A stretch of 64,000 nucleotides of DNA from an uncultured Candidatus Rokubacteria bacterium (GTDB lineage: Bacteria > Methylomirabilota > Methylomirabilia > Rokubacteriales > CSP1-6), in the NCBI GenBank assembly GCA_963762145.1, contig CAVXJS010000011.1, forward strand, positions 1-64,000. The letters are read 5' to 3'. Positions 16,036 through 34,537 of the stretch are shown piece after piece; position 1 is the first letter of the stretch; the number at the start of each line of letters is the position of its first letter. Below the pieces are notes generated by a model. That model was given only the letters and a program-made list of their open reading frames with translations. It did not search any database and had not been told where the DNA came from. Made by a program: the position numbers and the translations under genes.

Positions 16036-17823
16036 CCGCGGTGCTCGGCATCAGCGCCTACCACGGCGACGCCGCGGCGGCGCTGCTGTCGTCGACGGGC
16101 GGCTCGAGGCGGCCGTGGAGGAGGAGCGATTCACGCGCGTCAAGCACTGGGCGGGCTTTCCGCGCGAGTCGATCCGGAGCTGTCTCGACATGGCGGGGCA
16201 TGGCGCCCGCCGACGTGGACCACTTCGCCATCGGCCGGAACCCGCGGGCGCAACCTGTGGCGCAAGGCGCGCTTCGCCCTTGCGCATCGGCCGAGCCTGC
16301 AGCCTGGTCTCGGACCGCGCGAAGAACGCTCGCCGCGTGCGGGACGTGGCGGCCGCCCTCGCCGCAGGCGCTCGGCGCTCGACCCGCGCGCACGTCGACG
16401 AGCGCCTGCACTGGGTGGAGCATCATCCGGCGCATCTCGCGAGCGCCTTTCTTCGTCTCGCCCTTCGAGGAGGCGGCCGTCTGCGCCATCGACGGCTTCG
16501 GCGACTTCGTGAGCACCTCGTGGGCAGTCGGCCGCGGGGCGTCGGCTCGAGGATGCTGGATCGCGTGTACTTCCCCCACTCGCTCGGCCTCTTCTACCTC
16601 GCGATCACCCAGTACCTCGGGTTCACAGTCCTATGGCGACGAGTACAAGGTGATGGGCCTGGCTCCCTACGGGACGCCCGACTTCGCCGGGCGCTCTCGC
16701 GCGGCCTCGCCTCCTGCCGGAGGGGCGGGCGTTCACGCTCGACCTCTCGTACTTCCGCCACGCGTCCGAGCGGCGATCAGCATGACCTGGGACGACGGGG
16801 AGCCGGCGATGGACCCGGTCTTTACGCCGAAGCTCGAGGAGCTCCTCGGGCCGGCGCGGCACCCGGCGGAGCCCCTCACGCCGCGGCACGAGGCCATCGC
16901 GGCCTCGCTTCAGGTCGGTCTTCGAGGAGGCGGTCTTCCACGTGCTCCGCGGGCTCCACGCGCGGACGCGGCAGCCGCGGCTCTGCCTGGCGGGCGGCTG
17001 CGCCATGAACAGCGTCGCCAACGGCAAGATCCGCGAGCGAGACGCCGTTTCAGCGAGGTGTACGTCCAGCCCGCCGCCGGCGACAATGGGACGGCCCTCG
17101 GGGCCGCCCTCTACGTGTGGCATCAGCTCCTCGGGGGCGCGCGGCGCTTCGTCATGGACCACGCGTACTGGGGGCCGGCGTTCGGCCAGGATGCGGTCCG
17201 CGCGGCGCGCTCGACGCGCGGAGCGCGGAGCTGGACGGCCGCGGCATGCCGGCGTCAGCGAGATCGCCGACGACGAGGCGCTGTGCCGCTGGACGGCCGA
17301 GCGGCTCGCCGAGGGCCAGATCGTCGGGCTGGTTCCAGGGGCGGATGGAGTGGGGGGCGCGGGCCCTCGGCAACCGGAGCATCCTCGCCGATCCCCGGCG
17401 GGCGGACATGCGCGAGATCATCAATGCGAAGATCAAGCTCCGCGAGACGTTCCGGCCCGTTCGCCCCATCCATCCTCGAGGAGGCGCTCGACGAGTACTT
17501 CGTCGGAGCGGCGCCGGACCCGTTCATGATGCAGGTGTACCCGGTGCGCCCGGAGAAGCGCGCCGTGATCCCGGCGGTCGACGCACGTGGACGGCTCCGG
17601 GCGGCTGCAGACGGTGAACCGCGACGCACAACCCGCTCTACTGGCAGCTGCTGCGGGCCTTCGAGAAGCGCTGACCGGCGTGCCGGTGCTCCTCAACACC
17701 TCGTTCAACGAGAACGAGCCCATCGTGCACAAGCCGGAGGAGGCGCTGGACTGCTTCCTCCGCACGGGCATGGACGTCCTGGTGATGGAGAGCGTCGTGA
17801 TCGAGAAGCGCGCAGGAGGATAG
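16032..17823 (+). CDS. NodU/CmcH-family carbamoyltransferase (heavily frameshifted)
   Basis: [88 protein letters not shown] and [13 protein letters not shown]. Confidence 0.9.
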
Positions 17824-17826
17824 ACG

Positions 17827-18831
17827 ATGCCGGATTCACGGATCGCGATCACGGGTGGGGCCGGGTATATCGGATCGCTCTTGACCGGAGAGTTGCTCCG
17901 GAGGGGTCACCAGGTGACGGTGCTGGACACGCTCCTGTTCGGAGGCGAGTCATTGCTCGCGCACCTGGCGCATCCGGGATTTGCGTTCCGCAAGGTCGAC
18001 GTGGCGGATCGGAAGAACTGATCTGGTGCCGCTCCTGGAGGGCAGCGAGATCGTTTTCCACCTGGCGGCGATCGTCGGGTTCCCGGCGTGCCAGCAGATC
18101 GGCGAGCAGGCCGCGTGGCACTACAACGTGGAGGCGACGCAGCGGGTGTTCCAGGCCGCCGAGACCGCCGGGGCGTCACGTCTCGTCTTCGCGTCGACCT
18201 ATAGCAACTACGGCATCGCCGAGGGTGGCGCGCCGGTCACGGAGACGAGCCCGCTGCGCCCGCAGTCGCTGTACGCGCGGACGAAGATCGCCTCGGAGGA
18301 GTATCTGCTCGAGCGAGGGCGCCGGTCGCCGGTAGCGGTCGTCATCCCGAGATTCGCCACGCTCTACGGCTCTCGCCGCGCACCCGGTTCGATCTCATCG
18401 TGAACCAGTTCGTACTGGAGGCGCTCACGAAGCGGAAGCTGGTCATCTACCAAGGTGACTACACCAGGTCGTTCATCCACGTGAGCGACGTGGTCGACGC
18501 CCTCATTCAGATGGCGGAGGCTCCTGCGGAGCGGGTCCGGAACGAGATCTTCAACGTCGCGGCCGCGAACGGTAACTACTCCAAGCTGGAGCTCGTGGAG
18601 CTCATCCGGAAGAACGTGCCCGTCGTCGAGATCGAGCATCGCGATCTGAGCTTCGGCGAGGACATGCGCGACGTGGCCGTCTCCTGCGAGAAGATCGGTC
18701 GCGTCTTAGGGTTCCGGGCTCGACGAGGGGTCGAGGACGGGATCGTCGAGATCCGGGACGCGATCGAGACTGGCCTGATCAAGGATCCATCGTCCGCGAA
18801 GTACCGCAACCACCAGTTCATCGTGAACTGA
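17827..18831 (+). CDS. NAD-dependent epimerase/dehydratase (frameshifted)
   Basis: ITGGAGYIGS, HLAAIVGFPAC, FASTYSNYG, YARTK (YxxxK), RFATLYG and RSFIHVSD. Confidence 0.85.
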
Positions 18832-19793: not shown

Positions 19794-21072
19794 CAACAAC
19801 GTCACCCCTGCGGGTCTGCTTCTTCAACCGCTCGTACTATCCGGACCAGGCCGCCACCGGGCAGCTCCTCACCGAGCTGGCGGAGGATCTGGTCCGGGTG
19901 CACGGCTGCGAGGTCACGGTCGTGGCCGGGCCCGGCGCTGTCGACCCGCCGGGACCGGGGCGACGCCGCGCGGTGGCGGCCGGCTCTTCGAGCGGGAATG
20001 GCACAACGGCGTCGAGATCATCCGCGACGCGGGGCACGACGCTGCGCCCGCAGCGATTCGTCGGCGCGGGCCACGAACTACGTGAGCTACTTCCTCTCGG
20101 CGTGTCTGCGCCGGGCTGCGGCTGGGCCGCCCGGACGTCGTCGTCGCGCTGACCGATCCGCCGATCATCGGCCTGGCCGGCCATGCTCGCGGCGCGGCGC
20201 GGCCCGGCGCGCGGTTCGTCGTTCCTGTGCCAGGACATCTTCCCCGAGGTGGCGCGACTGCTCGAGGATTTCCAGAGCGAGACGGGTCAACGGGTCGCTC
20301 GAGCGGGTCAACCGCTACCTGGCTCGCGAAGGCGGACCGGGTGGTGGCGCTGGGCGAGACGATGCGCGAGCGGCTCGTCGAAGGGCAAGGGCGCCGACCC
20401 CGGCGAAGATCATCGGTCATCCACAACTGGGCGGACTGGCGAGCCATCGTCCCCGGGCCGAAGCGGAATGCCTTCTCGATCGCGCAACGGACTGGCCGAG
20501 ACACGTTCGTCGTCATGCATTCGGGGAACATCGGCCTGTCGCAGAGCTCGAGACGCTCGTGCACGCTGCCGCGCGGCTGAGCCGCGTATCCCGATATCGT
20601 GGTGGTCGTCGTCGGCGACGGGCGCAAGCGGGCCGGCCTTGGACGACTCGTGCGCGGGCGACTGAGGCTGGACAACGTGCGGTTTCTTGCCCTATCAGCC
20701 GAAGGAGCGGCTGAACGAGTCCTTCGCCACCGCCGATGTGTTCGTCGTCTCGCTCGAAGGCGGGCCTCGCCGGCTACATCGTGCCGAGCAAGCTCTATGG
20801 CATCCTGGCGGCCGGCCGGCCGTACGTGGCGGCGGTGGAGGAGGACTCCGAGGTGGACCGGGATCACCCGCGAAGTATGGCTGCGGCCTCCTCGCGCGAG
20901 CCCGGCGACCCGGGAGGACCTCGCCGAGCAAGATCCTCGCGCTGTATCGCGACCGGGCACGGGCGCGACGGCTCGGCGCCAATGCGCGGCGAGGCCGGCG
21001 CTCGAGTACGATCGGCCGCGGTCCAGATCCAGAGCGTACCACGAGCTGCTCCGTGCAGGCTGGCGCGACTGA
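19790..21072 (+). CDS. WcaI/WbuB-like GT4 glycosyltransferase (heavily frameshifted)
   Basis: FFNRSYYPDQAATGQLLTELAEDL, LCQDIFPE, VIHNWAD, HSGNIGLSQ and IVPSKLYGILAAGRP. Confidence 0.8.
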
Positions 21073-21109
21073 GAGCCGCATCGGGGCCGGCCGCTGGCGC
21101 CCGCCGCTC

Positions 21110-21716
21110 TTGAAGCGCCCGTTCGACGTGGTGCTGTCCGGAATCGGTCTGCTCGGCTCCGCTCCGCTCTGGGCGCTCATCGCGGCCGCCATCAAGCTCG
21201 AGGACGGCGGCGCGGTCTTCTTCCCGCAGGAGCGGGTCGGCCAGGGGGGGCGCCGGTTCAAGAGCTGGAAGTTCCGCTCGATGATCGAGGGCGCGGATGC
21301 CGAGCGTCGGCCCGCTGCAGGCCCGGGAGCGCGACCCGCGCATCACCCGCGTCGGCCGCCTGCTGCGCGCGACGGCGATGGACGAGCTGCCCCAGCTCTG
21401 GAACATCTTCCGGGGCGACATGAGCTTCGTGGGGCCGCGCGCGCTGCTGCCCGGAGGAGATCGAGGTGAGCGGAACGGGCGCGCGCGTGCCCATCGAGGC
21501 AGATCCCGGGCTACGAAGCGCGGCATCGCGTTCGGCCCGGCCTCACCGGCCTCGCGCAGATCTACGCCCCGCGGGACATTCCCGCGCCGGCACAAGTTCA
21601 AGCTCGACCGGCTCTACGTCAGGCGGCAGAGCTTCTGGCTCGATCTCAGGTTGATCGCGGTGTCCTTCTGGATCAGCTTCCGGGGGACCTGGGAGCGGCG
21701 GGGAGCGAAGTTTTGA
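21110..21716 (+). CDS. priming sugar (phosphoglycosyl) transferase, Bac_transf family (frameshifted)
   Basis: [65 protein letters not shown] and WLDLRLI. Confidence 0.88.
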
Positions 21717-22400
21717 GTGTGGCTCGCGCCCGCGAGAGGCCGGCGCTCCGACCGCGTGCTCACGTGGCCGCGGACCGCGCTGGTCGTGACGGTCTTGATC
21801 GCCGTGGTCGCGGCCTGCGTCGTCTGGGGGGTGAGGGGCCTCGGCGCCTGGCTGGTCGTGGAGGATCCGCTGGCGCCGGCGAAAGCGGTGGTGGCACTGG
21901 GAGGCGAGGTGCCGTTCCGAGCCATGGAGGCGGCATCGGTCTACCGCCAGGGATGGGCTTCGGAAGTCTGGCTCACGCGGCCGCCACAAGGCGCCGGGGA
22001 GGCCGCGTTGCATCAGCTCGGTATCCAGGTGCCCAGTGAGGACGCCTACAACCGTGCGGTGCTCGAGCGGCTGGGTGTCCCGGTCACGGCGATTCGAGTC
22101 CTGAGCCGGCCCGGGCAGAACACGGCCCAGGAGGTCCTGGTCATCGCGGAGGAGCTCCAACGAGCCGGTGGCGGGCAGGTGATTCTGGTCACGTCCAAGC
22201 CCCACAGCCGTCGGGTTCGAGCCACCTGGCGCGCGCTCATCGGCGAGCGCGCGATTGTCCGGTATGCAACGTCCGACCCCTACGATGCGCATCGCTGGTG
22301 GCGTCACACGGGCGACGCATTGGCAGTCTCGCGCGAGGTCTTCGGGCTCCTGAACGTGTGGGCGGGCTTTCCCGTCCGGCCGGCTCGCGCTGGGTTATGA
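21717..22400 (+). CDS. YdcF/DUF218 family protein
   Basis: N-terminal TM, AVVALGG, ERLGVP, QNTAQE, ILVTSKPHSRR and REVFG. Confidence 0.85.
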   Translation: MWLAPARGRRSDRVLTWPRTALVVTVLIAVVAACVVWGVRGLGAWLVVEDPLAPAKAVVALGGEVPFRAMEAASVYRQGWASEVWLTRPPQGAGEAALHQLGIQVPSEDAYNRAVLERLGVPVTAIRVLSRPGQNTAQEVLVIAEELQRAGGGQVILVTSKPHSRRVRATWRALIGERAIVRYATSDPYDAHRWWRHTGDALAVSREVFGLLNVWAGFPVRPARAGL

Positions 22401-22888
22401 TGCGCCGTACCACCATGAGGGCGTTGAGCCGCGGGCGAAAGATTCTCGGTTGCCTCGCAACCGACCGGGGGCTGCTGGTCTCCGCCCTCTGCCTGGTGTC
22501 AGCGATTCGGCTTGGACTCTGGGTCTTGCCCGTCCGGATGGTTGGCCGCGTCCTCGGCTGGGTGGTCTCTCGGAAGCCGGGAGTTGCCAGGGATCCGTCG
22601 CTTGCCGATCGGGTGGCGCGGGCCGTCACGCGGGCCGGTCGGGTGGTACCTGGTGCAACGTGTCTGACCCAGGCGCTGGCGACACAGGTGCTCCTCGAAC
22701 GGCACGGGCTCCCGACGCGGCTCCACATCGGGGTCGTCCGCGCCGGCGGGCAGGCAGTGCGCGGCCACGCCTGGGTGGAAACTCAGGGCGTGATCGTGAT
22801 CGGGGGAGCCATGTCCGGACAGTGGAGCACGTTGCTCACCGTCGAAGGGCCACGGGCGTGGTCCTCTTCCACTGGGCGGGCCTCGTGA
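22397..22888 (+). CDS. lasso peptide biosynthesis B2 protein (transglutaminase-like leader peptidase)
   Basis: ATCLTQALA (catalytic Cys), LHIGV and GHAWVE motifs; ATGA overlap with the ydcF stop. Confidence 0.9.
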   Translation: MMRRTTMRALSRGRKILGCLATDRGLLVSALCLVSAIRLGLWVLPVRMVGRVLGWVVSRKPGVARDPSLADRVARAVTRAGRVVPGATCLTQALATQVLLERHGLPTRLHIGVVRAGGQAVRGHAWVETQGVIVIGGAMSGQWSTLLTVEGPRAWSSSTGRAS

Positions 22889-23157
22889 TTCGGTCGAGTT
22901 TTCGACCGAGTCCGGATGCGATTGCCACGCGAGTCGGCGACGAGATCGTGCTGGTGGACCTCAGGACCGACCGGATCTACTCGCTGAACCGGACGGCGGC
23001 GCGCCTCTGGGAGCTCGTGGGCGCCGAGTGCGATCGGTCCGAGGTCGAGCGACGCATGCTGGAGGAATTCGACGTCACCCCGGACCAGCTCGCGGAGGCG
23101 ATCGACGAGTTCGTCCTGTCGATGACCCGGGACGGCCTGCTCTCGAGATCGGCATGA
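22885..23157 (+). CDS. PqqD-family RiPP recognition element (lasso B1)
   Basis: 90 aa: GDEIVLVDLRTDRIYSLNRTAARLWEL...EEFDV...IDEFVLSMTRDGLL; GTGA overlap with B2. Confidence 0.9.
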   Translation: MIRSSFRPSPDAIATRVGDEIVLVDLRTDRIYSLNRTAARLWELVGAECDRSEVERRMLEEFDVTPDQLAEAIDEFVLSMTRDGLLSRSA

Positions 23158-24941
23158 CGGACCCCTGGCTCCTGCGCTGGGACACCGCCCAGGATCAGCG
23201 GCCGACCGTCGTTCGCGCCGCGGACGTGGGCCGCTTTGGCCCGGGCTCGACGAGCTTCGTTGCATTCCAGGGGTACCTCTTCGACCGCGGTGAGCTGAGC
23301 ATCGGCCAGTCCGCGTCGGACGCGGGCCTCGTCGCATCGGCCTACGAGCGATGGCAGAGCGCCCTCTTCGACAAGCTGCGCGGGGGTTTCGCCCTGGCGA
23401 TCTGGGACGAGGAGCGCCAATGCGTGGTCGTTGGACGGGACGCCATGGGGCTGATCCCTTGCTTCTACTGGTGGAACGAGCGCATCCTCCTGGTGTCTCC
23501 GTCGCTCGACGCGCTCCTGGGCCAGCCGGAAGTGGACGCCCGTGTCAATCGGGCGCTCGTCGCGGAGTATCTGCAGAACATCCGGGGCTTCCAGCAGGTC
23601 CATGAGACCTTCTATGAGGACGTCCGGCGCCTGCCGCCCGCGCACTGGCTGTCCGTGAGTCGCGGGGCGCTGTCCCTGGCCCGCTACTGGGACCCGGTGC
23701 CGCCCGGCTTTGCCTGGGCGACCGAGGACGAGGTGTCCCGCTTCGCGGATGTCCTCGGCGCGGCGGTCGATCGTTGCCAGTCCGCCGGCGCGGACAGCCT
23801 GGCGCTGAGCGGCGGGTTCGACTCCGTGAGCATCGCGGTGGCGGCGGCTGCGCGCCGCCACGGGCGGCCCCCGCTGCACGCCGTGTCGCTGCGCTTCACC
23901 GATCCCTCCTGCGACGAAGGCCTGCGGCAGACCCAGGTCGCACAGGCTCTGGGGATGCCGCAGGTGATGCGGTCGCTCGACGAGTGCCTCGACGAGGACT
24001 CCTTCGTCGGCGAGCTCCGGGCCCTGTCCCGCGCATGCCCGGGCCCCGTCATGAGCGCGTGGCAGCCGATGTATGGCCGACTGCTGCGCGCGGCGGCCGA
24101 TCAGGGCCTCGGCCACCTGATGACGGGCGCCGGCGGGGACGAGATGTACTACGTGAATATGGGCTACGCGGCGGACTGTCTCGAGGCCTTCGACCTGCGC
24201 CGCCTCTGGCGCTTCTGTCAGGCCTGTCACGCGACGTGGCCGGGCATGCCGGTGCGAATCGCACGTTCAGTCCTCTGGGACGGGGCGATCAAGGGCGTGC
24301 TCAGGGAGCGGGCCCGCACACTGCTGTCTCCCGGGGCTCGCGAGCGGATCCGTACGCGACGGCTGAGGCGGGCGCGCCCGCCCTGGCTCGTGCCGGCCGA
24401 CGGGGGTCTCATCGCGAGGCTTGAGCGGCGGGCGGTCGAATCGCCCGCGGTGGAGATGGCCCCCGGTGAGGGCGCGTACGTGCGCGCCATGCGGCGTCTG
24501 CCACAGTCGCCGACCTTTTCGATGGAACTCGAACAGTCGCACGCGTGGACGGACCAGGTCGGATTCAGACTCCTGTACCCTTACTTCGATCGTGACCTGG
24601 TCGAGCTCTCCCTCCGCATGTCTCCTGAGCACCTGGTCGCGGGCGGGCGGGCCAAGGCGCCCCTGCGGCGACTGGTGGCAGAGCGGCTCCCGTCCGTGGC
24701 AATGCCCGCCCAGAAGGTGCTCTTCGGCCAATCGTTCGATCGCCTGTTCCGTCTCCATGGCCGGCGCGCGTGGACAGCGCTGGGTGGACCACGGGTGCTC
24801 AGCGAGTTGGGGATCGTCGATGCGCCGCAGGTTCGTGCCTTGATGGAGGAGTATTTCAGTGGTGTCGGCTCACGAAGCATGGAGGCCTGGCTGGTGCTGA
24901 GCACGGAACTCTGGCTCCAGGCCCGGTCTGACAGGCCCTAG
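23154..24941 (+). CDS. lasso peptide cyclase (C protein; asparagine-synthase-like, no N-terminal Cys)
   Basis: RDAMGLIP, RRLPPAH, LSGGFDS PP-loop, GAGGDE and YPYFDRDLVE. It lacks the MCG nucleophile and overlaps B1 by ATGA. Confidence 0.88.
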   Translation: MTDPWLLRWDTAQDQRPTVVRAADVGRFGPGSTSFVAFQGYLFDRGELSIGQSASDAGLVASAYERWQSALFDKLRGGFALAIWDEERQCVVVGRDAMGLIPCFYWWNERILLVSPSLDALLGQPEVDARVNRALVAEYLQNIRGFQQVHETFYEDVRRLPPAHWLSVSRGALSLARYWDPVPPGFAWATEDEVSRFADVLGAAVDRCQSAGADSLALSGGFDSVSIAVAAAARRHGRPPLHAVSLRFTDPSCDEGLRQTQVAQALGMPQVMRSLDECLDEDSFVGELRALSRACPGPVMSAWQPMYGRLLRAAADQGLGHLMTGAGGDEMYYVNMGYAADCLEAFDLRRLWRFCQACHATWPGMPVRIARSVLWDGAIKGVLRERARTLLSPGARERIRTRRLRRARPPWLVPADGGLIARLERRAVESPAVEMAPGEGAYVRAMRRLPQSPTFSMELEQSHAWTDQVGFRLLYPYFDRDLVELSLRMSPEHLVAGGRAKAPLRRLVAERLPSVAMPAQKVLFGQSFDRLFRLHGRRAWTALGGPRVLSELGIVDAPQVRALMEEYFSGVGSRSMEAWLVLSTELWLQARSDRP

Positions 24942-24964
24942 CGAGCGGAGGGAGGACGATCAGG

Positions 24965-25147
24965 ATGGGAAAGCCCGAAGAGAGATTTCCACAGGCCCAC
25001 CCGGAGGAGAAGTCGCCATGGGAGCGTCCCAGAGTGACGCTGGCCGGTACAGTCTCCTTGCTCGTGCGCGCCGGTAGCGCTCAGGGCAAGGGCGGTACCG
25101 AGCAGGACGGCGATATGAGTCAATTTCAGGCCCGGAGCAACCCCTGA
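24965..25147 (+). CDS. putative lasso-like RiPP precursor peptide (60 aa)
   Basis: Strong RBS (GGAGGGAGG). Leader motif W-E-R-P-R-V-x3-G, then the Gly/Asp-rich core-like tail AGSAQGKGGTEQDGDMSQFQARSNP. Lies between the cyclase and the kinase. Confidence 0.8.
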   Translation: MGKPEERFPQAHPEEKSPWERPRVTLAGTVSLLVRAGSAQGKGGTEQDGDMSQFQARSNP

Positions 25148-25184
25148 ACGAGCGGGGCCGCGCGAGGCGACGCCAGAGATCGGT

Positions 25185-26081
25185 GTGCTGAACCACACGA
25201 GAGCCAGGGCCGTGTCGGAAGACGGATCAGCGATCCCTGGGTTGATCCTCGTCGATCGCGTGCAGCCGACATCCGATTTGCTGGACCCGCTCGCCCCCGG
25301 TGTCGAGGTGTGCCACGACGCCAGGGGAGATCTGCTCGCCTACTGTCGCGCGGGGAACGGGACGCTTCGTGTGGACATCCCCGACCTGGCCTCGTTCTCC
25401 TACGAGCGCGGCACCGGCCACGTGAGGGCGATCCCCTATCGGCCGCTCTCGCCCGGCTTCATCCTGGAGACGTATCAGCATTGCGTGCTTCCCTTGATCC
25501 TGCCGGCGCTGGGCACTGAAGTCCTGCACGCGAGCGCCGTCGTCGGCGCTGCGGGTGTTGCCGCATTCTGCGGCCCGTCGGGAACCGGCAAGTCGACGAT
25601 TGCCGTCGCGCTGGCGCGTCGCGGGTATGCGCTCTGGGCCGATGATGCGGTCGCGATCGACACGGCCGAGCCCGAGCCGACGGCCATCCCGCTGCCGTTC
25701 ACGGTCCGGCTTCACTCCGACTCCGCCCGTTTCTTGGATGCCGCGTGCGAAGCGGGGACCTCTGTTGCGGCGGCCCCGCTCGACGCACAATCCGCTCCGC
25801 TCGCGGTGCTGTGCATGCTGCGGCGGACTCCGGACGCGACCGCCGCGGTGGCGGTCGAGCGGCTCGAGGCCGCCTCGACGTGTCAGGCGGCGCTGGCCCA
25901 CGCCTACTGCTTCAGCGTGAAGGACCTGGCGCAGAAGCGGCGCACGATCTGGAACTACCTGACGATGAGCGGACGGGTGTCGGCGTACGAGATTCGATTC
26001 CGCCCCGGGTTCGAGCGTCTCCCGGTCGTACTCGACGCCATCGAGGCGATCGTCGGCCGCGTACCGACCGACCCGAGATGA
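25185..26081 (+). CDS. HPr-kinase-like (lasso peptide-associated) kinase
   Basis: VLHASAV, Walker A GPSGTGKST and WADD motif, as in PadeK-type kinases. Confidence 0.85.
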   Translation: MLNHTRARAVSEDGSAIPGLILVDRVQPTSDLLDPLAPGVEVCHDARGDLLAYCRAGNGTLRVDIPDLASFSYERGTGHVRAIPYRPLSPGFILETYQHCVLPLILPALGTEVLHASAVVGAAGVAAFCGPSGTGKSTIAVALARRGYALWADDAVAIDTAEPEPTAIPLPFTVRLHSDSARFLDAACEAGTSVAAAPLDAQSAPLAVLCMLRRTPDATAAVAVERLEAASTCQAALAHAYCFSVKDLAQKRRTIWNYLTMSGRVSAYEIRFRPGFERLPVVLDAIEAIVGRVPTDPR

Positions 26082-27342
26082 CCGGAGCTATCAAGCCCGA
26101 AGACGGACTCTCGCCCGAGCTGGCATGTCTGTTGCTCCTCGTGCGGGGTGATCTGACCGCAGCGGACCAAGACCGTGCTCACGGGTTCCTAGAGCAGCCT
26201 CTCGCCTGGCAGGTCATCGTGCGATCGGCGTCCGAGCACGGAGTGTACCCGGCGGTTGCCCGGAATCTGAGGCGGCTCGGCTGGCCTCACGTCCCCGAGG
26301 CCTTCCGGAGCAACCTGGAGGCCGCCGCGCGCCTCAACGCCGCCCGGAATGCGCTGCTCGTCCGTGGCCTCGAGCAGATCCTCGGCCAATTCACCCGCGC
26401 TGCGGTCCCGGTGATCCCCCTCAAGGGGGTGGCGCTGGCCGAGTCGCTCCATGCTGACGTCGGCCTCCGGGTGTGCTCGGACCTGGACATTCTCGTGCCG
26501 CGCCGTGCGGTCGCGCAGGCCTTCGAACTGCTGCTGGCCGCCGGCTACGAGCAGACTGACCGGTTGCGCGTCGAGCCGCCGGACGTGGACTTCCTCGTGC
26601 GCAGCGCCATGGAGTATGGCTTCACTCCGCCGGTATCGGCCTTCCCCTACCTCCTCGAGCTTCACTGGGACATTGCCTGGCGCTGGCGAGGCGACACGGC
26701 GATGGTGGACGACCTGTGGGCCGAGGCGCGGCCGCAGCGCGTTCCGGGGAGTCGAGGCATGGACGCTGAGCCCCGAGTGGGAGCTGCTCTACCTCGCCGT
26801 GCACGCGGCCCGGCATCGCTGGCAGGGATTGAAGTGGCTCGTGGACATCCACGAGGTATGCATCGCGGGCGAAGTTCGACTGGGACACGGTGACGGACAA
26901 GGCGCATCGCTTCGGGCTCGAACGGGTGCTGGGCGTCAGCCTGAGCGTCTGCCAGGCGCTCTTCGGCACGCCGCTGCCGCCCGACTATTCCGGGCATCCG
27001 GTTCCGTCGTGGGTCCCCCTGTTCCCGGCATCGGCCCCGAGCATGGGCGAATGGCGAGAGGCCTTGCGGGCGCGGCGCCTGTTCCGGCGCCCGCAGGATC
27101 GGCTGCGCTATCTGGCGCGGATCGCGTTGCGTCCGACGCTGGGTGAGCTCGAGATGGTCCGGCTGCCGCCCGGCCTCCGGATGCTCTACTATCCGTTGCG
27201 TCTTCTTCGCCTGGGGATCGCAAGTGGTTGCGGGCTAGCGCGCGCCGCACTGCGGGCGAAATTGCTTGGGACCGTCATCGGGGGAGTCCATACTCTCACC
27301 TCGACCTATAGGCATCGGCCTTCGACTATAGGGAGGGACTGA
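26078..27342 (+). CDS. nucleotidyltransferase family protein (NTP_transf_5-like; frameshifts near 26745 and 26875)
   Basis: PLKGVALAE, RVCSDLDILV, LELHW and LLYLAVHAARH...LKWLVDI; ATGA overlap with the kinase. Confidence 0.85.
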
Positions 27343-27343
27343 T

Positions 27344-28532
27344 ATGCATCGGGTAGCGGTGAGACGTGTGGCTTCGGTCCTGCTGGGATGCCTGCTCGCC
27401 CTGGCTGCCATCGGCAGGCCGGCGCTGGCGCTGGACCTCGGCGAGTGGATCCCCGGGCTCAAGCTCAGCCCGTTCCTCAGCGAGCGGGTGGAGTACCAGA
27501 GCAACGTCTTCCAGGTTCCGAGTCACTCGCAGAGCGACGTGATCTTCAAGACCATTCCCGGCTTCCTGGCCGATTACACGTTCGGGCCCCACTCCGTGAC
27601 GCCGGCTACCGGGCCGAGATCCTGAACTACGTCGACCTCACTGACCAGAACACCGTCAACCATATCGCGGTCTTCTTGCTCCGGCTCGACTTTCCACGCC
27701 GCTGCTCACCCTGCGCGAGGACTTCGTGCACACCAGCGATCCGCCGGGGACGGAGCTGACCGGGGCCCGATGGAGAGCTCCACCAACACGCTGAGGCCCG
27801 AAGGGGAGTACCGGATCACATCGACCTTCTCACGGGAGTGAACTTCACGTGGACGCACGTGCGGTTCGACCAGGCATCCATTGGCAACCTCATCGACCGC
27901 GACGAGTACCGTCCCGGCGCGTCGGTATTCTGGAAGTTTACCCCGAAGGCGGATATCGGGCTCAACTACACCTACGGGCGGGTCATCTTCTCGGAGGCCA
28001 GACGACCGGAACTACACCGACAATCTCGTCTTCGTCGAGCCTGCGGGGAGACATCACGGCCAAGCTCTCCTCGACGTTGCGGGTGGGATACCTGATCCGC
28101 ACGCCCGACTCCAGCAGCCAGCCCGGCTGGAGTGGGTTGACCTTCGGGGGAGACACGACCTACAAGCCGACCGAGCGGACCACCATCACCCTGGCGACCC
28201 AGCGGGTTCCGCAGGAGTCGACATTCGGGACGGACCCGTTCTATGTCACGACGAACGCGAGCCTCTCGGTGACGCAACAGTTGCTCCCCAAGCTGAGCGT
28301 CAACGCCCGCCTCGGGGGCGGAGTCAACGACTACTCGACGAAGCAGACGACCGACGGGAGGACCGACTTCCGGCGGGACACCTTCATCCTGGCCGGTGCC
28401 GGCATCGACTACGACATCCAGCCGTGGCTGCGGGTCGGGCTCGAGTACCGGCGGACGAGCCGCGATTCCAACTTCCCTTCGTTTCGCTTCGTGGATGACC
28501 GCGTGAGCGGGCGGGCTACGGTGCAGTTCTAG
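27344..28532 (+). CDS. outer-membrane beta-barrel protein, EPS-locus type (frameshifted)
   Basis: Signal peptide, alternating beta-strands, YRRTSRDSN and a C-terminal Phe (ATVQF); upstream of wza. Confidence 0.75.
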
Positions 28533-28569
28533 CCCCCTCACCCTGCCCTCTCCCCGGAGGGGAGAGGGG
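28533..28569. repeat. REP-like GC-rich palindromic element
   Basis: CCCCCTCACCCTGCCCTCTCCCC-GGA-GGGGAGAGGGG with a perfect 10-bp stem, directly after a stop codon. There is one copy in the window. Confidence 0.55.
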
Positions 28570-28577
28570 TAGGCCGC

Positions 28578-28606
28578 TTGACAGCCGGTCGCCCCTCGCA
28601 TAAGCT
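28578..28606 (+). promoter_or_regulatory. putative sigma70 promoter of wza-wzc
   Basis: TTGACA-N17-TAAGCT, ending 25 nt before ATG 28632. Confidence 0.6.
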
Positions 28607-28631
28607 TCCGACACTACAGGTGAAAGTTCCG

Positions 28632-29486
28632 ATGGTCCGGCTTCTGCACAGCTCTCTATCATTCCCGGTTACCTTGGCGCTGGTGCTCTGCGTGGGCTCC
28701 CCGGCGTTGGGCCAGGAGTACACGATCGGGCCCCGCGACGTATTGGGGATCTCGGTATGGGGGCAGGCGGATCTGTCCCGGGATTACACGGTGGACCCGG
28801 ACGGTTTCATCCCGTTTCCGCTGGTCGGCCGTGTGAAGGCGGTGGGGTCGAACCCGAAGGAGCTGGCGGCGCAGCTGACCGAGCGCCTCGGGAAAGACTA
28901 CCTGGTCAACCCGCAGGTCATCGTATGGGTGAAGGAGTATCTCTCCCAGAAGGTCCAGGTGCTCGGGGCGGCGGAGAAACCAGGCGTCTACTATCTCAAT
29001 GGCCCGACGACGATGCTGGAGATCCTCTCGAAGGCGGGCGGGCTGGCGTCTACCGCCGGCAAGCAGGTCATTCTCCTCCGGAACCACGTCGCCTCCGCAG
29101 GCGGCGAGGTGAGCGCAAGCCCCATCCTGCGCATCAGCCTGGACAAGATGCAGGCGGGGGACCCGGCGGAGAACACCCGGGTGCAAAATCAGGACACCAT
29201 CATCGTGTCCAAGGCGCAGGCCCACTCGTATTTCGTCCTGGGCGAGGTCAAGAAGCCCGGCGGGTACACGCTCGAGAAGGAGACGAACATTCTGGAGGGG
29301 ATCACGATCGCGGGCGGCTTCACGGACAAGGCGGCGCCCAGCCGCATCCGTCTGCTCCGCTCGACCCCCGAGGGGCAGAAGGTCATCGAGGTCGACATGA
29401 ACGACATCCTCCGGCGCGGCCGCGAGGCGAAAGGCATCATGCTCCAGGAGAGCGATGTCGTGGTGGTGCCCGAGAGTTTTTTTTAG
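28632..29486 (+). CDS. polysaccharide export protein (Poly_export + 2 SLBB; Wza-like)
   Basis: YTIGPRDVLGISVWGQADLS, VDPDGFIPFPLVG, LVNPQV, GEVKKPG and AGGFT. Confidence 0.9.
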   Translation: MVRLLHSSLSFPVTLALVLCVGSPALGQEYTIGPRDVLGISVWGQADLSRDYTVDPDGFIPFPLVGRVKAVGSNPKELAAQLTERLGKDYLVNPQVIVWVKEYLSQKVQVLGAAEKPGVYYLNGPTTMLEILSKAGGLASTAGKQVILLRNHVASAGGEVSASPILRISLDKMQAGDPAENTRVQNQDTIIVSKAQAHSYFVLGEVKKPGGYTLEKETNILEGITIAGGFTDKAAPSRIRLLRSTPEGQKVIEVDMNDILRRGREAKGIMLQESDVVVVPESFF

Positions 29487-29528
29487 TGGTGGAGCCCAAG
29501 GTGAAGGATTTTGTCCCCAGATAGGCAC

Positions 29529-30893
29529 ATGATGCTCGAACGCGAGCCACAGCCACGGGCTGCCGATTATCGGCGCCTCCTGCGCAAGCACCGGTGGCTG
29601 ATGACCGGGGTCTTCCTCCTGACGGTGCTCACCGCCGCGATCTGGACCTTCGTCCAGGTGCCGATCTACGAGGCCGTGGCGACCATCCTCATCGACCCCG
29701 AGCCGCCGAGGGTGCTGAACATCCAGGACGTGGTCCCGATGGGTAGTGGGTTGTGGGACCGAAACTTCTACCCGACCCAGTACGAGATCATCCAGAGCCG
29801 GCCGGTGCGCGAGCGGGCCGCCGCGGTGCTGAGGGCTCGGAAGGGCTTGGCGGAAGGTGTAGCTGGCGAGCTGTCAGGGGCGATCACCGTCGAGCCCAAG
29901 CGGAATACGCGGCTGGTGCTGATCAAGATCGCTGGTCCCGATCCGGTGCTTTCGGCCGAGGAGGCCAACGCGGTCGCCAGTGCCTACGCGAGGTACAACG
30001 TCGAGCTCAAGCTCAAGGGGGCTCGGGACGCGCTCACGTGGCTGACGGAGGAGGCTGGGCGGCTCCGGGCGAAGGCCGAGGAATCCTCCCAGGCGCTGCA
30101 GAACTACCGGGTCAAGACCGGAATCCTCGGGATGCAGGAGCAGCGCCAGATCACGGCCGCGAAGATCATGGACTTCAACAAGGCCTTTCTGGAAGCCCAG
30201 GCCCAGCGGCTGTCCCTGGAGTCCAAGCTCCAGCAGCTGGATCGGATCGCCAAGGAACCGGCCGGCGTCCAGACGATCTTCACCGTGGCGGAAAATCCCC
30301 TTATCGACCGGCTGAAGGGCGAGGCGTCAACCCTCGAGACCGAGAAGTCCAAGCTCCTGAAGGTGTACAAGGATCAGCATCCGGAGATCCTGAAGGTCGA
30401 TGCACAGATCCTGCAGGTCAAGCAACGGCTCGAGGCGGAGTTTCAGAACACGCTTCGGGCCGTCCAGACTCAATACAAGGTGGCCAAGGGGCGTGAAGAC
30501 ACGCTCGCCAACCAGGTCAATCAGCTCCGTCAGGAAGGGCAGCAGCTGAACGAGAGGGAGATCCAGTACCAGAACCTCCAGCGCGAGGTCGAGTCCAACC
30601 AGGCCCTCTACGAGTCCGTGGTCAAGCGCATGAAGGAGACCGGGGTGGCCGGCGGTCTCGAGGACAGCAACGTGCGGATCATCGAGGCGGCCACGCCGCC
30701 CACCGTCCCGATCCGACCGCGACAGACCCGGAATCTGGTGGTGAGTATCGTGGCGGGGCTGATTCTCGCGTTCGGGGTGGCCTTCGCCCTCGAGTACCTC
30801 GACACCACCGTGAAGACTCCCGACGACGTGGAGCGCTATCTCGGCCTGTCGGTGATCGGGGTCGTCCCGGCGTTCCAGGCCAGGCGACGCTGA
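29529..30893 (+). CDS. GumC/Wzc-type polysaccharide co-polymerase (chain length determinant)
   Basis: Two TMs flanking a coiled coil, PIYEAVATILI, YKDQHP, NVRIIEAATPP..P and EYLDTTVKTPDDVERYLGLSVIGVVP. Confidence 0.9.
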   Translation: MMLEREPQPRAADYRRLLRKHRWLMTGVFLLTVLTAAIWTFVQVPIYEAVATILIDPEPPRVLNIQDVVPMGSGLWDRNFYPTQYEIIQSRPVRERAAAVLRARKGLAEGVAGELSGAITVEPKRNTRLVLIKIAGPDPVLSAEEANAVASAYARYNVELKLKGARDALTWLTEEAGRLRAKAEESSQALQNYRVKTGILGMQEQRQITAAKIMDFNKAFLEAQAQRLSLESKLQQLDRIAKEPAGVQTIFTVAENPLIDRLKGEASTLETEKSKLLKVYKDQHPEILKVDAQILQVKQRLEAEFQNTLRAVQTQYKVAKGREDTLANQVNQLRQEGQQLNEREIQYQNLQREVESNQALYESVVKRMKETGVAGGLEDSNVRIIEAATPPTVPIRPRQTRNLVVSIVAGLILAFGVAFALEYLDTTVKTPDDVERYLGLSVIGVVPAFQARRR

Positions 30894-31636
30894 TGGCTGC
30901 GCACGAGAGCCGGGGGCACCCCCACCATCCCGATCCGGTCCTCATCACGCTGAGCGATCCCAAGTCCGCCGCCTCGGAGGCTTTCCGGACGCTCCGCACC
31001 AATATCCAGTTTGCCGGGCTGGATCAGCCCTGCCGGAGCATCGTGGTCACCTCGGCCGGTCCCGAAGAAGGGAAGACCACCTCTGCGGCCAACTTCGGCG
31101 TGGTGGCCGCGCAGGCCGGCGTCCCGCGTGTGCGTGGTCGATTCCGACCTCCGGCGCCCGACGCTGCACCGTCTCTTCAAGCTGAGCAATGCGCGGGGGC
31201 TGACCACGGCCCTGCTGGAGGGCCTGTCGTTCGCCGAGGTGGCCCAGCCCACGGTGGTGCCCAACCTCTCGATCCTGCCCAGCGGGCCGCTGCCACCCAA
31301 CCCGGCCGAGCTGGTGGGCTCCCACCGGATGCGCGAGCTGTCTGCGGGCCGCCACCGAGTCGTTCGATCTCGTCCTGTGTGACAGCCCCCCGCTGATGGC
31401 CGTCGGCGACGCGGCGGCCCTCGCCGCGCAGTGCGACGGGGTGATCTTCGTGATCCGGGTCGGCAAGACGGCCCATGACGTCCTGCGGCGCGTGGTGGAC
31501 CAGATCGAGGCGGTCAAGGGGCAGGATCCTGGGCGTCGTCCTCAACCGGGCCGATCCGCGACGCGACGGCTACTACTATTACTACCAGGCCTACCAGAGC
31601 TACTACGGAGCCGATGAGGGCGGCACGAAGCGCTGA
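30893..31636 (+). CDS. CpsD/CapB-family BY-kinase (frameshifted)
   Basis: SEAFRTLRTNI, Walker A GPEEGKTT, DSDLRRP, PPNPAEL, DSPP and the Tyr cluster YYYYYQAYQSYY. Confidence 0.9.
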
Positions 31637-32406
31637 GGCGCGCCGGCCTGTACGGCCAGCGGGCCGTCTGATCCGCGCGGTGACGCTCGATCTGTGGGGC
31701 ACGCTGTTTCTCGACGGCCCGGCCAGCGATGATCGCTACAAGCGCCAGCGACTGGCCGGGATCCAGGCCGCGCTGGCCGGTGTCGGCATCACGGTAGCTT
31801 CGGCCCAGCTCGAGCGAGGCTACGCCGCCGCCGGCCACCGGCTCGGCGAGCTCTGGCAGACGAACCGGGACGTCCCGATCCGGGAATTCGTCGATGGCGC
31901 TCCTCGAGGCGGTCGATGCCGCGCTGCCGGGTCGGCTGAGCGCCGAAACCATGGCGGTCCTGATCAGGGCCTACGCGAGCCCGGCCCTGCTGGCGCCACC
32001 GGCCGTCGACCCGGGCGCTCGCTCTGCGCTCGAGACGCTCGCCGCCGAGGGAACCCGCCTCGCGATCATCTCGAACACCATGCGCACTCCGGGCGAGGTG
32101 GTGCGACAGGTGCTCGACAAGTCGGGACTCCTCCCGCTGTTCCGAGTGCTGACCTTTTCCGACGAATGCGGGATCAGGAAACCGGCCTCGGGGATCTTCC
32201 TTCGCACGCTGAAGGATCTGGATGTGTTGCCCGAGGAGGCGGTGCACGTGGGTGACGACGCGATCCTCGATGTCGAGGGCGCCCGGGATGCCGGGATGCG
32301 CGTGATCCAGGTGACCCACGACGGGCGCGCCACCGCCCCCGTGAAGCCGGACGCCGTCATCCGGCACCTCGGCGAGCTGCCGGCCGCGTTGCGGCGGCTC
32401 CGCTGA
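31614..32406 (+). CDS. HAD-family hydrolase (one frameshift near 31895)
   Basis: TLDLWGTL, IISNT, RKP, HVGDD..LDVEGARDAGM. The start is uncertain. Confidence 0.85.
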
Positions 32407-34497
32407 TGGCATTCCGCGCTGACCGGCCCGCGCGGGCGGGTCTACCTGATCGCCACCGCGGTCATCGTGCTGGTGCTGGCCCTCTTTCTCTGGGCGCCCG
32501 ACTTCCTGCAGGCGGTGGAGGTGCGGCTCTACGACCTCCACTTCAAGCTGCGGGGCACCCAGCCGCAGACGGCGGAGCGCATCGTCATCGCCGCCATCGA
32601 CGAGAAGAGCCTGGCCGCGCTCGGTCGCTGGCCCTGGCCGCGCTCGCTCATGGCCGATCTCATCCGGAAGCTCTCGGCGGACGGCGCCAAGGTGATCGCG
32701 GTCGATATCCTGCTGAGCGAGCCGGAGGTGAGTGGCGAGCTCCGGGCGGCCGCGCAGCTCTCGGAGCGCCTCCGGACGCTGGGGCTCGCCGGGAGCTCCG
32801 CAGGGTCGGCGGTCCAGCGCGAGCTCGACGCCTACACGCGCGAGGCTGATCGCGACCGCCAGCTGGCCGAGGCCGTGCGCGACAGCGGCCGCGTGGTCCT
32901 GCCGATCGTGTTCGAGGTCGGGCCGGATCGGACCGGGCCGCCTCCCGAGCCGGCCGGCGCGGCCTTCAAGTCGGCCCTGGTAAGCTTCCGTCACTGCGAC
33001 GAGCGGGGAGTGTATCCGCCGCCGGCAGGCCGCAGCGCCACGCCTGCCCATCCCGCGTGCTCGCGGCGCGGCGCCAAGGACGCTCGGGCACGTGACGATG
33101 CTGGCCGACCGCGATGGCACGACGCGCTGGGAAGCGGTGGCCTTCGAGCACCAGGGCCACTACTATCCCTCGTTGGCGGTCCAGGCGGTGCGCCTCGCCA
33201 TGGCGGTGGAGCCGACACAGCTGACGCTCGACTTCGGCCGGAACCTCACGGTCGGATCGGTTTCTGTCCCGCTCGATCCCCGCGACCGGATGCTGATCAA
33301 CTACGCGGGGCCCGGGGGGACCTTCCGGCACCTGTCCGCGGTGGATCTGCTGACCGGGAAAGTGGCGCCGGATGCGGTGCGCGACCGCATCGTCTTCGTG
33401 GGGGCCACCGCGGCCGGGACGTACGATCTCCGCGTCACGCCCACGAGCCCGATCATGCCCGGAGTGGAGAAGCACGCCAACGTGGCGGCCAATATCCTGA
33501 CCGGGCAGTTCCTCCGGCGTCCGGACTGGGTGGAGCTCGTCGAGCTGGCCGGCATTCTGGTCTTCCCGCTGGTGCTCGCGTGGCTGCTGCCCCGGTTGCG
33601 GCCCGCGGTGAGCGTGGGCGCCGTGGCGCTCGTCTGGGTGATCCTCTTCGGCGCCGTGCATCTCGCGTTCCGCGGCGGGCTCTGGCTGCCCGTGGTGTAT
33701 CCGACGCTCGCTCTGGGACTCGACCTTCCTCGGGATCACGGTGTACCGTCTGCTCACCGAGGAGCGACAGCGCCTGTGGACGAAGCGCGCGTTCCAGCAG
33801 TTCGTCAGTCCGGAAGTCGTCGAGCAGCTCATGGACAATCCCGCCGCGCTGCAGTTCGGGGGCGAGATGCGGAACCTCACCGTGCTCTTCTCGGATATCC
33901 GCGACTTCACCCCCTACACGGAGCGCCACCCGCCCCACGAAGTGGTCCAGATGCTGCGGGAGTACCTCACGAAGATGGTGGACCAGGTCCTGGCCCAGCA
34001 GGGCACGCTCGACAAGTTCATCGGCGACGGGGTCATGGCGATCTTCGGGGCCCCGGTGCCGCTGCCCGATCACGCCGAGCGGGCGTGCCGGGCCGCGCTC
34101 GGCATGAACCGGGAGCTGGAGGCGCTCCAGGCCCGATGGGTCGCCGAGGGCCGGGAGCCCTTCAAGATCGGCATCGGGATCAACACCGGCGACATGATGG
34201 TCGGCAACCTCGGCTCGGAGCAGCTCTTCGATTACACGGTGGCCGGCGACGGGGTCAACGTCGGGGCCCGGGTGGAGTCGCTCAACAAGGAATACCAGAC
34301 CGAGACGTCCATCATCATCAGCGAGACGACGTACCTGGCGGCCCAGGACGTCCTGGACGTCCGGCGGCTCGGCGAGGCGACGGTCAAGGGCAAGACGCCG
34401 CCCTATCGTGGTCTACGAGCTGCGCGGGATCCGTGAGACAGTGGAGCGCGTGCCCATTCCGGCTCCCTTGACAAAGGAGCCAGCGAGGGCCTATTGA
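32406..34497 (+). CDS. CHASE2-domain adenylate cyclase (frameshifted)
   Basis: IDEKSLAALGRWPWPR, DRDGTTR, LINYAGP, PGVEKHAN, 3 TMs, LFSDIRDFT, LDKFIGDG, GINTG, DYTVAGDGVNVGAR and VVYEL. Confidence 0.88.
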
Positions 34498-34537
34498 TGC
34501 GGTACACCGAACACTTGAGCACGAGGGGGGAGTAGGC

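Follow-up and report, generated by a model that had tools for sequence, protein, structure and literature searches.

The stretch of DNA analysed here (the window) comprises the first 64 kb of contig C11 from the genome of an uncultured soil bacterium of a diderm phylum (G000; 6.26 Mb in 25 contigs, 88% complete) and has a G+C content of about 70%. A polysaccharide locus extends from about 2.8 to 32.4 kb, and from about 9.6 kb on all of its genes lie on the + strand. Within this slime-polysaccharide operon we found a full lasso-type gene set, i.e. a cluster for a ribosomally synthesised peptide with post-translational modifications (RiPP), without an exporter gene. A preliminary description had placed the genes B2, B1, C, A, K and N on one strand between a priming transferase with a ydcF-like gene and the genes for an outer-membrane barrel, Wza and Wzc. 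This arrangement was confirmed by the open reading frames (ORFs) and by Pfam and NCBIfam profile searches of the window ORFs, from which the gene identities are taken. The same description had let the lasso genes begin at 21717; this position is the start of the DUF218 gene, and B2 begins at 22397. The locus contains the following features:

20996-21716, + strand: Bac_transf, priming sugar-phosphate transferase (PF02397, with profile positions 1-64 and 66-177 in two different frames)
21717-22400, + strand: DUF218 protein, YdcF/SanA-like (PF02698, 1.7e-11)
22397-22888, + strand: B2, transglutaminase-like leader peptidase (NF033537, PF13471)
22885-23157, + strand: B1, PqqD-like RiPP recognition element (PF05402, 5.6e-13)
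23154-24941, + strand: C, asparagine-synthetase-like candidate macrolactam cyclase (Asn_synthase PF00733, 2.4e-31, plus GATase)
24965-25147, + strand: A, 60-aa precursor peptide (position after C, family motifs)
25185-26081, + strand: K, putative peptide kinase of the HprK/PEPCK fold (P-loop motifs, predicted fold)
26078-27342, + strand: N, PF14907 nucleotidyltransferase (in three frames in the window)
27344-28532, + strand: outer-membrane beta-barrel, BBP2_2/EpsL-like (PF10082, 6.2e-17; TIGR03014 EpsL, 1.2e-16)
28547-28569, no strand: palindrome resembling a repetitive extragenic palindrome (REP-like), between the barrel gene and wza
28578-29486, + strand: Wza-type polysaccharide export protein (PF02563, 1.2e-24; SLBB domains; TIGR03027, 1.3e-43)
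29511-30893, + strand: Wzc/EpsF-type chain-length determinant, Wzz plus GNVR (TIGR03017 EpsF, 1.2e-56; PF13807, PF02706)
30893-31617, + strand: BY-type tyrosine autokinase, EpsG-like (TIGR01007 in pieces, three frames)

The B2 protein was recognised by the lasso model NF033537 (84 bits, cut-off 33) and by PF13471 (7.6e-21; 74.7 bits, cut-off 26); a sequence search of the structure database with B2 gave no match. As the only PF13471 match in G000 is this single B2 gene, the cassette is the only lasso-type cluster found in the genome. B1 scored 49.4 bits on the PqqD family PF05402 (cut-off 23.4) and aligned over residues 9-86 with TbiB1 (5v1u; E 0.0011), and on the curated lasso_PqqD models it reached 32 bits with a cut-off of 80. 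For C, with 110 bits on PF00733, 178 homologs were found. Its assignment is weighed down by the lasso-cyclase model NF033535, on which C obtained 151 bits (cut-off 525) and the AsnB paralog at 7049-9070 (- strand) obtained more, 214 bits. This paralog exceeds the cut-off of the asparagine-synthase model (413.6 bits, cut-off 267.1), so that NF033535 is not discriminating at the window locus. The N-terminus of C reads MTDPW and is without the Cys nucleophile; the paralog starts with MCGIAG. Lasso cyclases are not known to carry Cys2, the glutaminase nucleophile. Because C stays below the cut-off and the paralog scores higher, the assignment of C as a lasso cyclase rests on its context. The B2 and PqqD scores (84 against 33 and 49 against 23 bits) and the recurrence of the cassette in dozens of loci indicate that it is more than a chance assembly.

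The matches of K to Hpr_kinase_C and HprK_rel_A/B were weak and below the cut-offs. Twelve K orthologs share an invariant His, the motif GxxGxGKST and a DD within A-D-D. The predicted structure of K (pLDDT 86.6) led in Foldseek to PEPCK and HprK/P (3tqf, 1kkl; E about 1e-5); by sequence, only PEPCK was found among the solved structures (E about 1e-3). The pieces of N matched PF14907 in two frames with 4e-36 (125 bits) and 4e-9, and the intact ortholog in locus L048 matched with 3.7e-59 (200.7 bits). The residues D138-x-D140 (L048 numbering) are invariant. An N ortholog was modelled with a pLDDT of 76.6, and its fold matches were of the MenT type and ANT(2'')-Ia, including 5cfs and 4xje; a sequence search of N against the solved structures gave no match. 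The genome holds a second PF14907 match of 42 bits (G000:C21:745456-745917, - strand) with no B2 gene nearby.

A split B1/B2 pair together with an AsnB-like C, an HprK-like K and a nucleotidyltransferase is indeed the gene set of the paeninodin and pseudomycoidin type, as had been proposed, and is also that of the Bsf cluster (PMC8498205, PMC6993621, PMC10368454). The cassette had further been called complete. This holds for A, B1, B2, C, K and N; the ABC exporter D is missing from the cassette, and no ABC_tran match was present among the ORFs of 20687-31617.

Junctions, transcription signals and frame breaks

The genes are tightly packed. The pairs DUF218/B2, B1/C and K/N overlap by ATGA and B2/B1 by GTGA, as described earlier, and the TGA of Bac_transf abuts the GTG start of DUF218. 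N is followed after a single nucleotide by the barrel gene (TGA-T-ATG, with GGGAGGG just upstream). The borders thus consist of four 4-nt overlaps plus a 0-nt and a 1-nt gap. The overlaps are real, and the translational coupling that had been derived from them is a reasonable reading that relies on predicted start codons for B1, B2 and K. The N genes of the closest intact orthologs, L048 and L045, end about 24 codons before that of the window, and 65 nt lie between N and the barrel gene in L048; the 1-nt gap is therefore particular to the window strain. It is genuine here, as all eight gaps of the short-read contig covering 25990-28031 (X1-record 4) were explained by other places.

Only short, chance-level repeats were detected between 19000 and 30000, in agreement with the earlier statement that neither insertion sequences nor terminal repeats flank the cassette. 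A consensus scan of 20500-32500 found no promoter-like or terminator-like site on the + strand, which is weak evidence at 70% GC; the sole terminator-like site of the scan lies on the minus strand within wza. The REP-like palindrome (10-nt arms, 3-nt loop) is followed by TTGACA. It occurs 170 times in exact copy in G000 (6.26 Mb), and the window contains one of these copies (28547). The contig depth spikes to 63-142 at 28531-28569, with many loose ends. The palindrome may bound a transcript or act on RNA stability.

Several genes of the window are interrupted in the assembly: N shows two frame breaks (near 26737 and 26864; three frames), the barrel gene at least two, the tyrosine-kinase gene two and Bac_transf one. 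With the intact orthologs of L047, L048, L053 and L067 the breaks were mapped to about 21306-21330, 26737, 26864, 27600, 27700, 31113 and 31349. The Bac_transf orthologs of L047 and L053 align in frame 2 and then, from about 21306, in frame 3, and for the tyrosine kinase the alignment with the L067 ortholog is split between frames 2 and 3.

Part of the stretch is covered by 20 public runs of soil or related metagenomes, and contigs of four of them, from two studies, were compared with the window. No RNA run was among those listed for 21500-31400. The contigs of these four soil runs are near-identical to it and carry single-base indels at 83 places in the 19 kb between 15000 and 34000. Twelve of the 83 places were listed: 26737 and 26864 in N; 27599, 27699, 27765, 27770, 27831, 28000 and 28036 in the barrel gene; 31120 in the tyrosine-kinase gene; and 31894 and 33721. 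Nearly each of the listed indels occurs in all runs that cover the place. Pseudogenisation of N, the barrel gene and the tyrosine-kinase gene was considered and rejected for the located breaks, since contigs of the four runs carry compensating 1-nt indels there. These breaks are hence assembly errors, and the genes are intact in nature. The break in Bac_transf and the tyrosine-kinase break at about 31349 are not among the twelve listed places.

Across B2, B1 and C (22063-24802) and in the 3' end of N no indels were found relative to the short-read contigs. The contig over 24848-25997 has three unplaced gaps, and a small error in the 3' end of A or the 5' end of K is possible. Short-read contigs, among them 21096-25995, 22063-22737, 25990-28031 and 26003-27457, bridge both borders of the cassette, and its junctions are not misassembled. 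The best-matching run may be the sample of origin, so that this evidence is independent of the assembly and not necessarily of the sample. The indels probably span the whole contig, and given their number the gene calls of G000 cannot be read as pseudogenes. The carbamoyltransferase (16032-17823) and epimerase (17827-18831) genes also look frameshifted in the assembly.

Further genes of the polysaccharide locus encode GT1/GT4 glycosyltransferases, a deacetylase, a glutamine-type AsnB, an FkbM methyltransferase, a carbamoyltransferase, two epimerases and a HAD hydrolase. The Bac_transf ortholog of L047 matched TIGR03025, the polyprenyl glycosylphosphotransferase of exopolysaccharide (EPS) synthesis, with 7.7e-72, and the intact barrel ortholog of L048 has 395 aa. 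The matches to the EpsL, EpsE, EpsF and EpsG models all remained below their cut-offs. An EPS system of the PEP-CTERM/exosortase kind was rejected because its exosortase (EpsH/XrtA, PF09721) had no match in G000 (88% complete). Immediately 3' of the EPS locus (32467-35464, + strand) follow a CHASE2-domain adenylate/guanylate cyclase, frameshifted in the assembly, and a FecR-domain protein, which could be a signalling input to the locus.

Recurrence of the cassette in polysaccharide loci

As far as their flanks allow, the loci L019, L045-L048, L053, L054, L056, L061 and L067 share the order Bac_transf-(DUF218)-B2-B1-C-A-K-N-barrel-Wza-Wzc-tyrosine kinase. In these roughly ten syntenic loci C is 48-83% identical to that of the window. 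Bac_transf lies just 5' of the cassette in L019, L045, L046, L047, L053, L054, L061 and L067; the barrel gene lies just 3' of it in L019, L045, L048, L056, L061 and L067, with Wza and Wzc next in L019, L048, L056, L061 and L067. The window clade and L053 have the DUF218 gene, for which a tblastn search gave no match in L019, L054, L061 and L067. Two exceptions were noted, G227 (L018/L117) and L020/L058. In G227 the cassette is accompanied by NeuB, a UDP-glucose dehydrogenase and a sugar nucleotidyltransferase, with no Wza/Wzc in 10 kb on each side, and in L058 a block of Bac_transf, glycosyltransferase, DegT and CapD genes lies upstream.

A quick tree, with SH-aLRT as the only support, was calculated; L072, L064, L065 and L032 were dropped as partial matches, and the tree is without L019 and L061, whose C matches are split in several pieces. 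The close-relative loci except L020 and L058 formed one clade (SH-aLRT 87), which could go back to a single ancestral insertion. The C protein of G027, 38-39% identical, groups with actinobacterial types (99*). In G027 the order on one strand is barrel-Wza-Wzc-tyrosine kinase-Wzy_C/TPR-NusG-like-B2-B1-C-A-K-N-AsnB-GT1, so that the cassette stands inside the orthologous EPS operon at another position than in the window clade. Beside B2 this locus (L118, G027:C7:30000-49999) carries on the minus strand at 9189-10103 a NusG-domain paralog (PF02357, 8.8e-18), in the stretch of about 3.7 kb between the tyrosine-kinase gene and B2 and after a 980-aa Wzy_C/TPR protein. Operon-specific antiterminators of the NusG type occur in polysaccharide operons, and the paralog may be one.

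Glycan genes also adjoin less related cassettes. In L026 (Anaerolineales) the cassette lies directly 3' of a Wzz-BY-kinase, a low-molecular-weight phosphatase and an LCP protein; in L021 (Alphaproteobacteria) it stands amid GT2/GtrA, UDP-glucose dehydrogenase and AT3-SGNH genes. Three glycosyltransferase genes are situated 3 kb from the cassette of L023, a Wzx flippase and Wzc are near that of L062, and in L072 the cassette follows five glycosyltransferase genes. When the loci were sorted into 14 context groups, 8 had a glycosyltransferase, Bac_transf, Wzz or Wzx gene within about 10 kb (9 with G227), and 4 had Wzz/Wzc. In G000 as background, 11% of the genome lies at most 10 kb from a GT1/GT2 match and 1% at most 10 kb from a Wzz match. 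The corresponding rough binomial tails are 2.8e-6 for glycan genes (9/14) and 8.6e-6 for Wzz/Wzc (4/14); as we defined the groups ourselves, they are not fully independent of one another and a single genome provides the null, these figures give a direction only.

Whether homologous cassettes sit in random contexts had been named as one test of the embedding. The outcome was mixed: about ten relatives and the distant G027 show the EPS setting, and 5 of the 14 groups have no glycan genes nearby. Judged from these neighbourhoods, the link between cassette and glycan genes is frequent and not obligatory, and the EPS embedding recurs in ways beyond what a single insertion can explain.

Unusual arrangements were seen in some of the relatives. 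L062 has two tandem precursor genes (11650-11912), L024 carries the PqqD domain and the cyclase in one ORF (9662-11776), L028 encodes a 776-aa protein with a C-terminal B2 domain (7296-9626), and a 417-aa ORF after the kinase region of L030 (5843-7096) has its B2 domain at residues 294-400.

With moderate confidence we read the locus as a paeninodin-like, K/N-tailored lasso-type cassette that is transcribed within an EPS operon and whose product acts with the envelope glycan machinery rather than as a secreted antibiotic. The product is most likely envelope-acting or glycan-decorated, because an exporter gene is lacking and the relatives are without antibiotic activity: paeninodin and pseudomycoidin did not inhibit the bacteria tested, as reported in PMC6993621. 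By analogy, a role other than that of a secreted antibiotic would thus fit both the literature and the missing exporter gene. Several observations speak against this reading. In the acidobacterial loci L020 and L058, K is followed by an ABC transporter, which would be required for an exported product; five context groups (L024, L027, L028, L029 and L030) have no glycan neighbours; and the palindrome between the barrel gene and wza may place the genes 3' of it on a separate transcript.

Alternatively, the cassette could be a self-contained RiPP cluster inserted into a mobile polysaccharide locus, its junctions being the result of operon compaction and its peptide unrelated to the polysaccharide. 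The patchy distribution suits such a passenger: at E <= 1e-60, only 5 of the 251 phylum genomes searched, and 2 of the 21 from the genus, yielded a C ortholog. A Wzc matching that of the window was likewise not found in the other 20 genus genomes at E <= 1e-80, which implies that locus and cassette come and go together and which left no cassette-less empty site recoverable in the genus. G032, G034 and G036 have an orthologous export module without the cassette, with upstream genes that differ from those of the window. Recombination inside the cassette is suggested by L053 (7757-12276), where the identity to the window falls at the B2/B1 boundary from about 70% (Bac_transf 69%, DUF218 72%, B2 70%) to about 50% (B1 48%, C 51%). 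For B1 and C, L053 falls into another clade, and it has the other type of precursor, ending with G-V-G; if recombination did occur here, one B2 type would serve two precursor types. The five groups without glycan neighbours fit a passenger as well. However, two phylogenetically distant cassettes, those of the window clade and of G027, stand within like EPS operons at different positions. The unrelated L026, L058, L021, L062 and L072 adjoin glycan genes far above the rough genome background, and the same link was independently reported for Bacilli in PMC13381572. We therefore hold a mere passenger to be unlikely.

More far-reaching, and quite improbable in our view, is the proposal that RiPPs tailored by K and PF14907 enzymes form a polysaccharide-locus module across phyla, in which a phospho-sugar peptide extended by the locus glycosyltransferases (primer, cap or anchor) is built into the EPS or controls its assembly. 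If this glyco-lasso reading were true, the window would be its diderm example, with the peptide on one transcript with the priming transferase and the Wza/Wzc exporter.

A related idea, raised in the preliminary description as a structural tag, anchor or glycan carrier of the envelope, takes the phosphorylated peptide as a primer, anchor or covalent carrier that would be extended by the glycosyltransferases of the locus and exported via Wza. N-type enzymes place a hexose on a peptide phospho-Ser, which resembles phosphoglycosyl primer chemistry (PMC6993621). In addition, the cassette lies directly after the priming Bac_transf/DUF218 side and before the export genes, with no exporter of its own, and PMC13381572 considers that neighbouring polysaccharide genes possibly contribute to peptide modification. 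On the other hand, an ordinary lipid-linked priming enzyme (Bac_transf) is already encoded in the locus, the orthologous export modules of G032, G034 and G036 do without the cassette, and the cytoplasmic, ATP-dependent maturation of lasso peptides offers no route into the periplasmic Wzx/Wzy pathway. Moreover, 5 of the 14 groups have no glycan genes nearby. We consider a carrier role highly doubtful.

The precursor peptide and its candidate ring

Precursor A has 60 aa with the sequence MGKPEERFPQAHPEEKSPWERPRVTLAGTVSLLVRAGSAQGKGGTEQDGDMSQFQARSNP, and its start is preceded at a distance of 8-16 nt by the motif GGAGGGAGG. In every related locus that reaches that far we found a small ORF of one architecture 3' of C, in total 35 peptides from several phyla. 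They share W-x-x-P-x-[L/V], an invariant Gly nine residues on, an aliphatic residue and G-K-x5-D-x-D; the corresponding positions of the window peptide are W19-x-x-P22-x-V24, G28, V34, G41-K42, D48 and D50. Outside the window clade the precursors end with K-x-G-x-G. Those of the window clade have three additional residues before G-K, another tail and often two Cys, and the window peptide is without Cys. The family was not found by name in a literature search, and its motifs had no occurrence in the one text supplement of PMC10368454 that was searched.

The leader of A contains W19-E-R-P22-R-V24 and thereby the motif [Y/W]xxPx[L/V/I] as quoted in PMC13381572; the Trp is invariant in 24 of 24 aligned peptides. 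A predicted complex of B1 and A obtained a score of 0.51, the best control 0.00, which was graded as weak support; the runs agreed in at least 94% of the contacts, with a partner pLDDT of at least 52. Of 157 solved complexes 116 reached the mark used, as did 2 of 215 mismatches; with scores of at most 0.60 it was reached by only 18 of the 157 and by both mismatches. As a TbiB1-leader complex has already been solved, the pass of B1 and A may echo that known structure.

Two cleavage sites were compared. When the residue ahead of the Lys (window: G41) is taken as the first of the core, an Asp or Glu stands at core position 7-9 in 34 of the 35 peptides and Gly is the first residue in 31. If instead the aromatic residue W19 is put at -17, the spacing used for BsfA in PMC10368454, A36 becomes the first core residue; V34 then occupies -2 and S38 core position 3, both of which resemble BsfA. 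This canonical spacing is disfavoured because it places the acidic residue at 10-13, outside the known ring sizes of 7-9. We prefer a putative ring between G41 and D48, with cleavage most likely before G41.

This assignment has its difficulties. A start at G41 moves the aromatic residue to -22 (in other clades to -19 or -20), and 3 of the 35 peptides would then begin with Thr or Pro. The C-terminal Ser that serves as acceptor of PadeK and PsmK is absent, A ending with S58-N59-P60 and most family members with G-x-G, and the close ortholog in L048 has no Ser or Thr in its G-K core at all. Under the canonical spacing the window clade has its first acidic residues at core positions 11, 13 and 15, and most other clades have theirs at 10. 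Neither start provides a Thr at leader position -2, where V34 (canonical spacing) or A39 (G-K start) is found; Ile, Val and Ala at -2 are described as exceptions in PMC10368454.

These observations raise the alternative that the lasso-like enzymes make no true threaded lasso but a phospho(glyco)peptide that is branched-cyclic or even linear, or has a ring of atypical size. A ring acceptor at position 10-13 under canonical spacing and the absent Thr(-2) would agree with it. So would published findings: pseudomycoidin produced without K and N was not threaded (PMC6993621), linear polyphosphorylated peptides (LPPs) use the same set of K, N and RiPP recognition element (PMC13381572), and the mature product of the bsf cluster, which is related, was never detected according to PMC10368454. 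Nevertheless, every context group has B2 and C, both of them intact and conserved, and under the G-K start 34 of 35 peptides would form a 7-9-residue ring. A product without a lasso fold is improbable, too.

Proposed pathway and comparison with known systems

Returning to the K/N-tailored lasso-type product, we infer the following course from the gene content and the motifs. The cassette would be transcribed as part of a Wzx/Wzy-type EPS operon, and B1 would hold precursor A by the W19-x-x-P22-x-V24 leader motif. K would then phosphorylate a Ser or Thr of the still linear precursor. Subsequently B2 would remove the leader, most likely before G41, and C would form the isopeptide ring from G41 to D48. 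Finally, N would add a sugar or a nucleotide-activated group onto the phosphate. This would yield a phospho(glyco)peptide that is produced solely along with the polysaccharide machinery.

Several of these steps have counterparts in the literature. Kinases of this kind modify the linear precursor, at the C-terminal Ser of paeninodin and, dependent on B1, at Ser3 of BsfA (PMC8498205, PMC10368454), and PsmN is required for one or two hexoses on the phosphate of the phospho-Ser (PMC6993621). In Bacilli, paeninodin-like lasso clusters and LPP clusters without cyclase are embedded in capsular polysaccharide loci and were up-regulated together with an eps gene in reverse-transcription quantitative PCR; their roles are stated to be unknown, and a link to biofilms is speculated upon (PMC13381572, Nat Commun 2026). 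A rumen survey mentions GT2 and EpsH genes beside Butyrivibrio clusters (PMC7533575). Our literature search did not find a lasso-polysaccharide link outside the Bacillota.

The capsule clusters of Bacilli described in PMC13381572 resemble the window most closely in setting: they likewise comprise A, B1, B2, C, an HprK-like kinase and an NTP transferase, described there as uncharacterised, and lie in polysaccharide loci with a BY-kinase. The window differs in its host, an uncultured diderm phylum, and in a locus with Wza and an outer-membrane barrel; it is without the MsbA-like exporter, the SipW-like peptidase and the second RiPP recognition element, has another precursor family, and its genes overlap with their EPS neighbours. 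The LPP clusters of the same paper have neither cyclase nor B2 and contain a SipW-like signal peptidase. An LPP identity of the window cassette was rejected, as C and B2 are present and intact and no match to a signal-peptidase family occurred among the cassette ORFs.

The pseudomycoidin cluster psmCAKB1B2ND of Bacillus pseudomycoides (PMC6993621) resembles the window in having a split B together with C, K and an N of the PF14907 type. The metal residues D134/D136 of PsmN, for the identification of which 5cfs and 4xje had been used, correspond to D138/D140, and the same two entries were fold neighbours of our N ortholog. In contrast to the window, the psm cluster has an exporter D and another gene order, and its acceptor is the C-terminal Ser; the window precursor ends with S-N-P and most of the family with G-x-G. 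Paeninodin (pade, Paenibacillus dendritiformis) also relies on an HprK-like kinase that acts on the linear precursor before folding, but according to PMC8498205 its acceptor is a C-terminal Ser, and the cluster contains an exporter D and lacks N.

The bsf cluster of Bradymonas sediminis (PMC10368454) is likewise a Gram-negative lasso cluster with K and N, has the leader motif [Y/W]xxPxL and shows an aliphatic residue instead of Thr near the cleavage site. BsfA carries Ile(-2), is phosphorylated by BsfK on the internal Ser3 of the linear precursor and has a predicted Gly1-Asp8 ring; by analogy, an internal phospho-acceptor is possible in the window precursor. According to the same paper, precursors with Ile or Val at -2 occur in Acidobacteriaceae and Sphingomonadales. 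The bsf cluster differs by an ABC exporter and by flanks unrelated to glycans; its core begins with G-T-S and that of the window family with G-K, and the spacing from the aromatic residue to the core is longer in the window family (-19 to -22) than in bsf.

The embedding of paeninodin-like clusters in capsule loci is thus already known for Bacilli, with their role described as unknown (PMC13381572), and the window extends the pairing of phosphorylated or glycosylated paeninodin-like lasso peptides with glycan genes to a distant group. The precursor family of the window has culturable carriers among the Acidobacteriota and Alphaproteobacteria. The repeated independent juxtaposition provides comparative evidence for a testable rule, namely that the K/N peptide module works with the glycan machinery. 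Compared by sequence with the systems above, what appears to be new is a diderm, exporter-less version with a different precursor family that is spread across several phyla.

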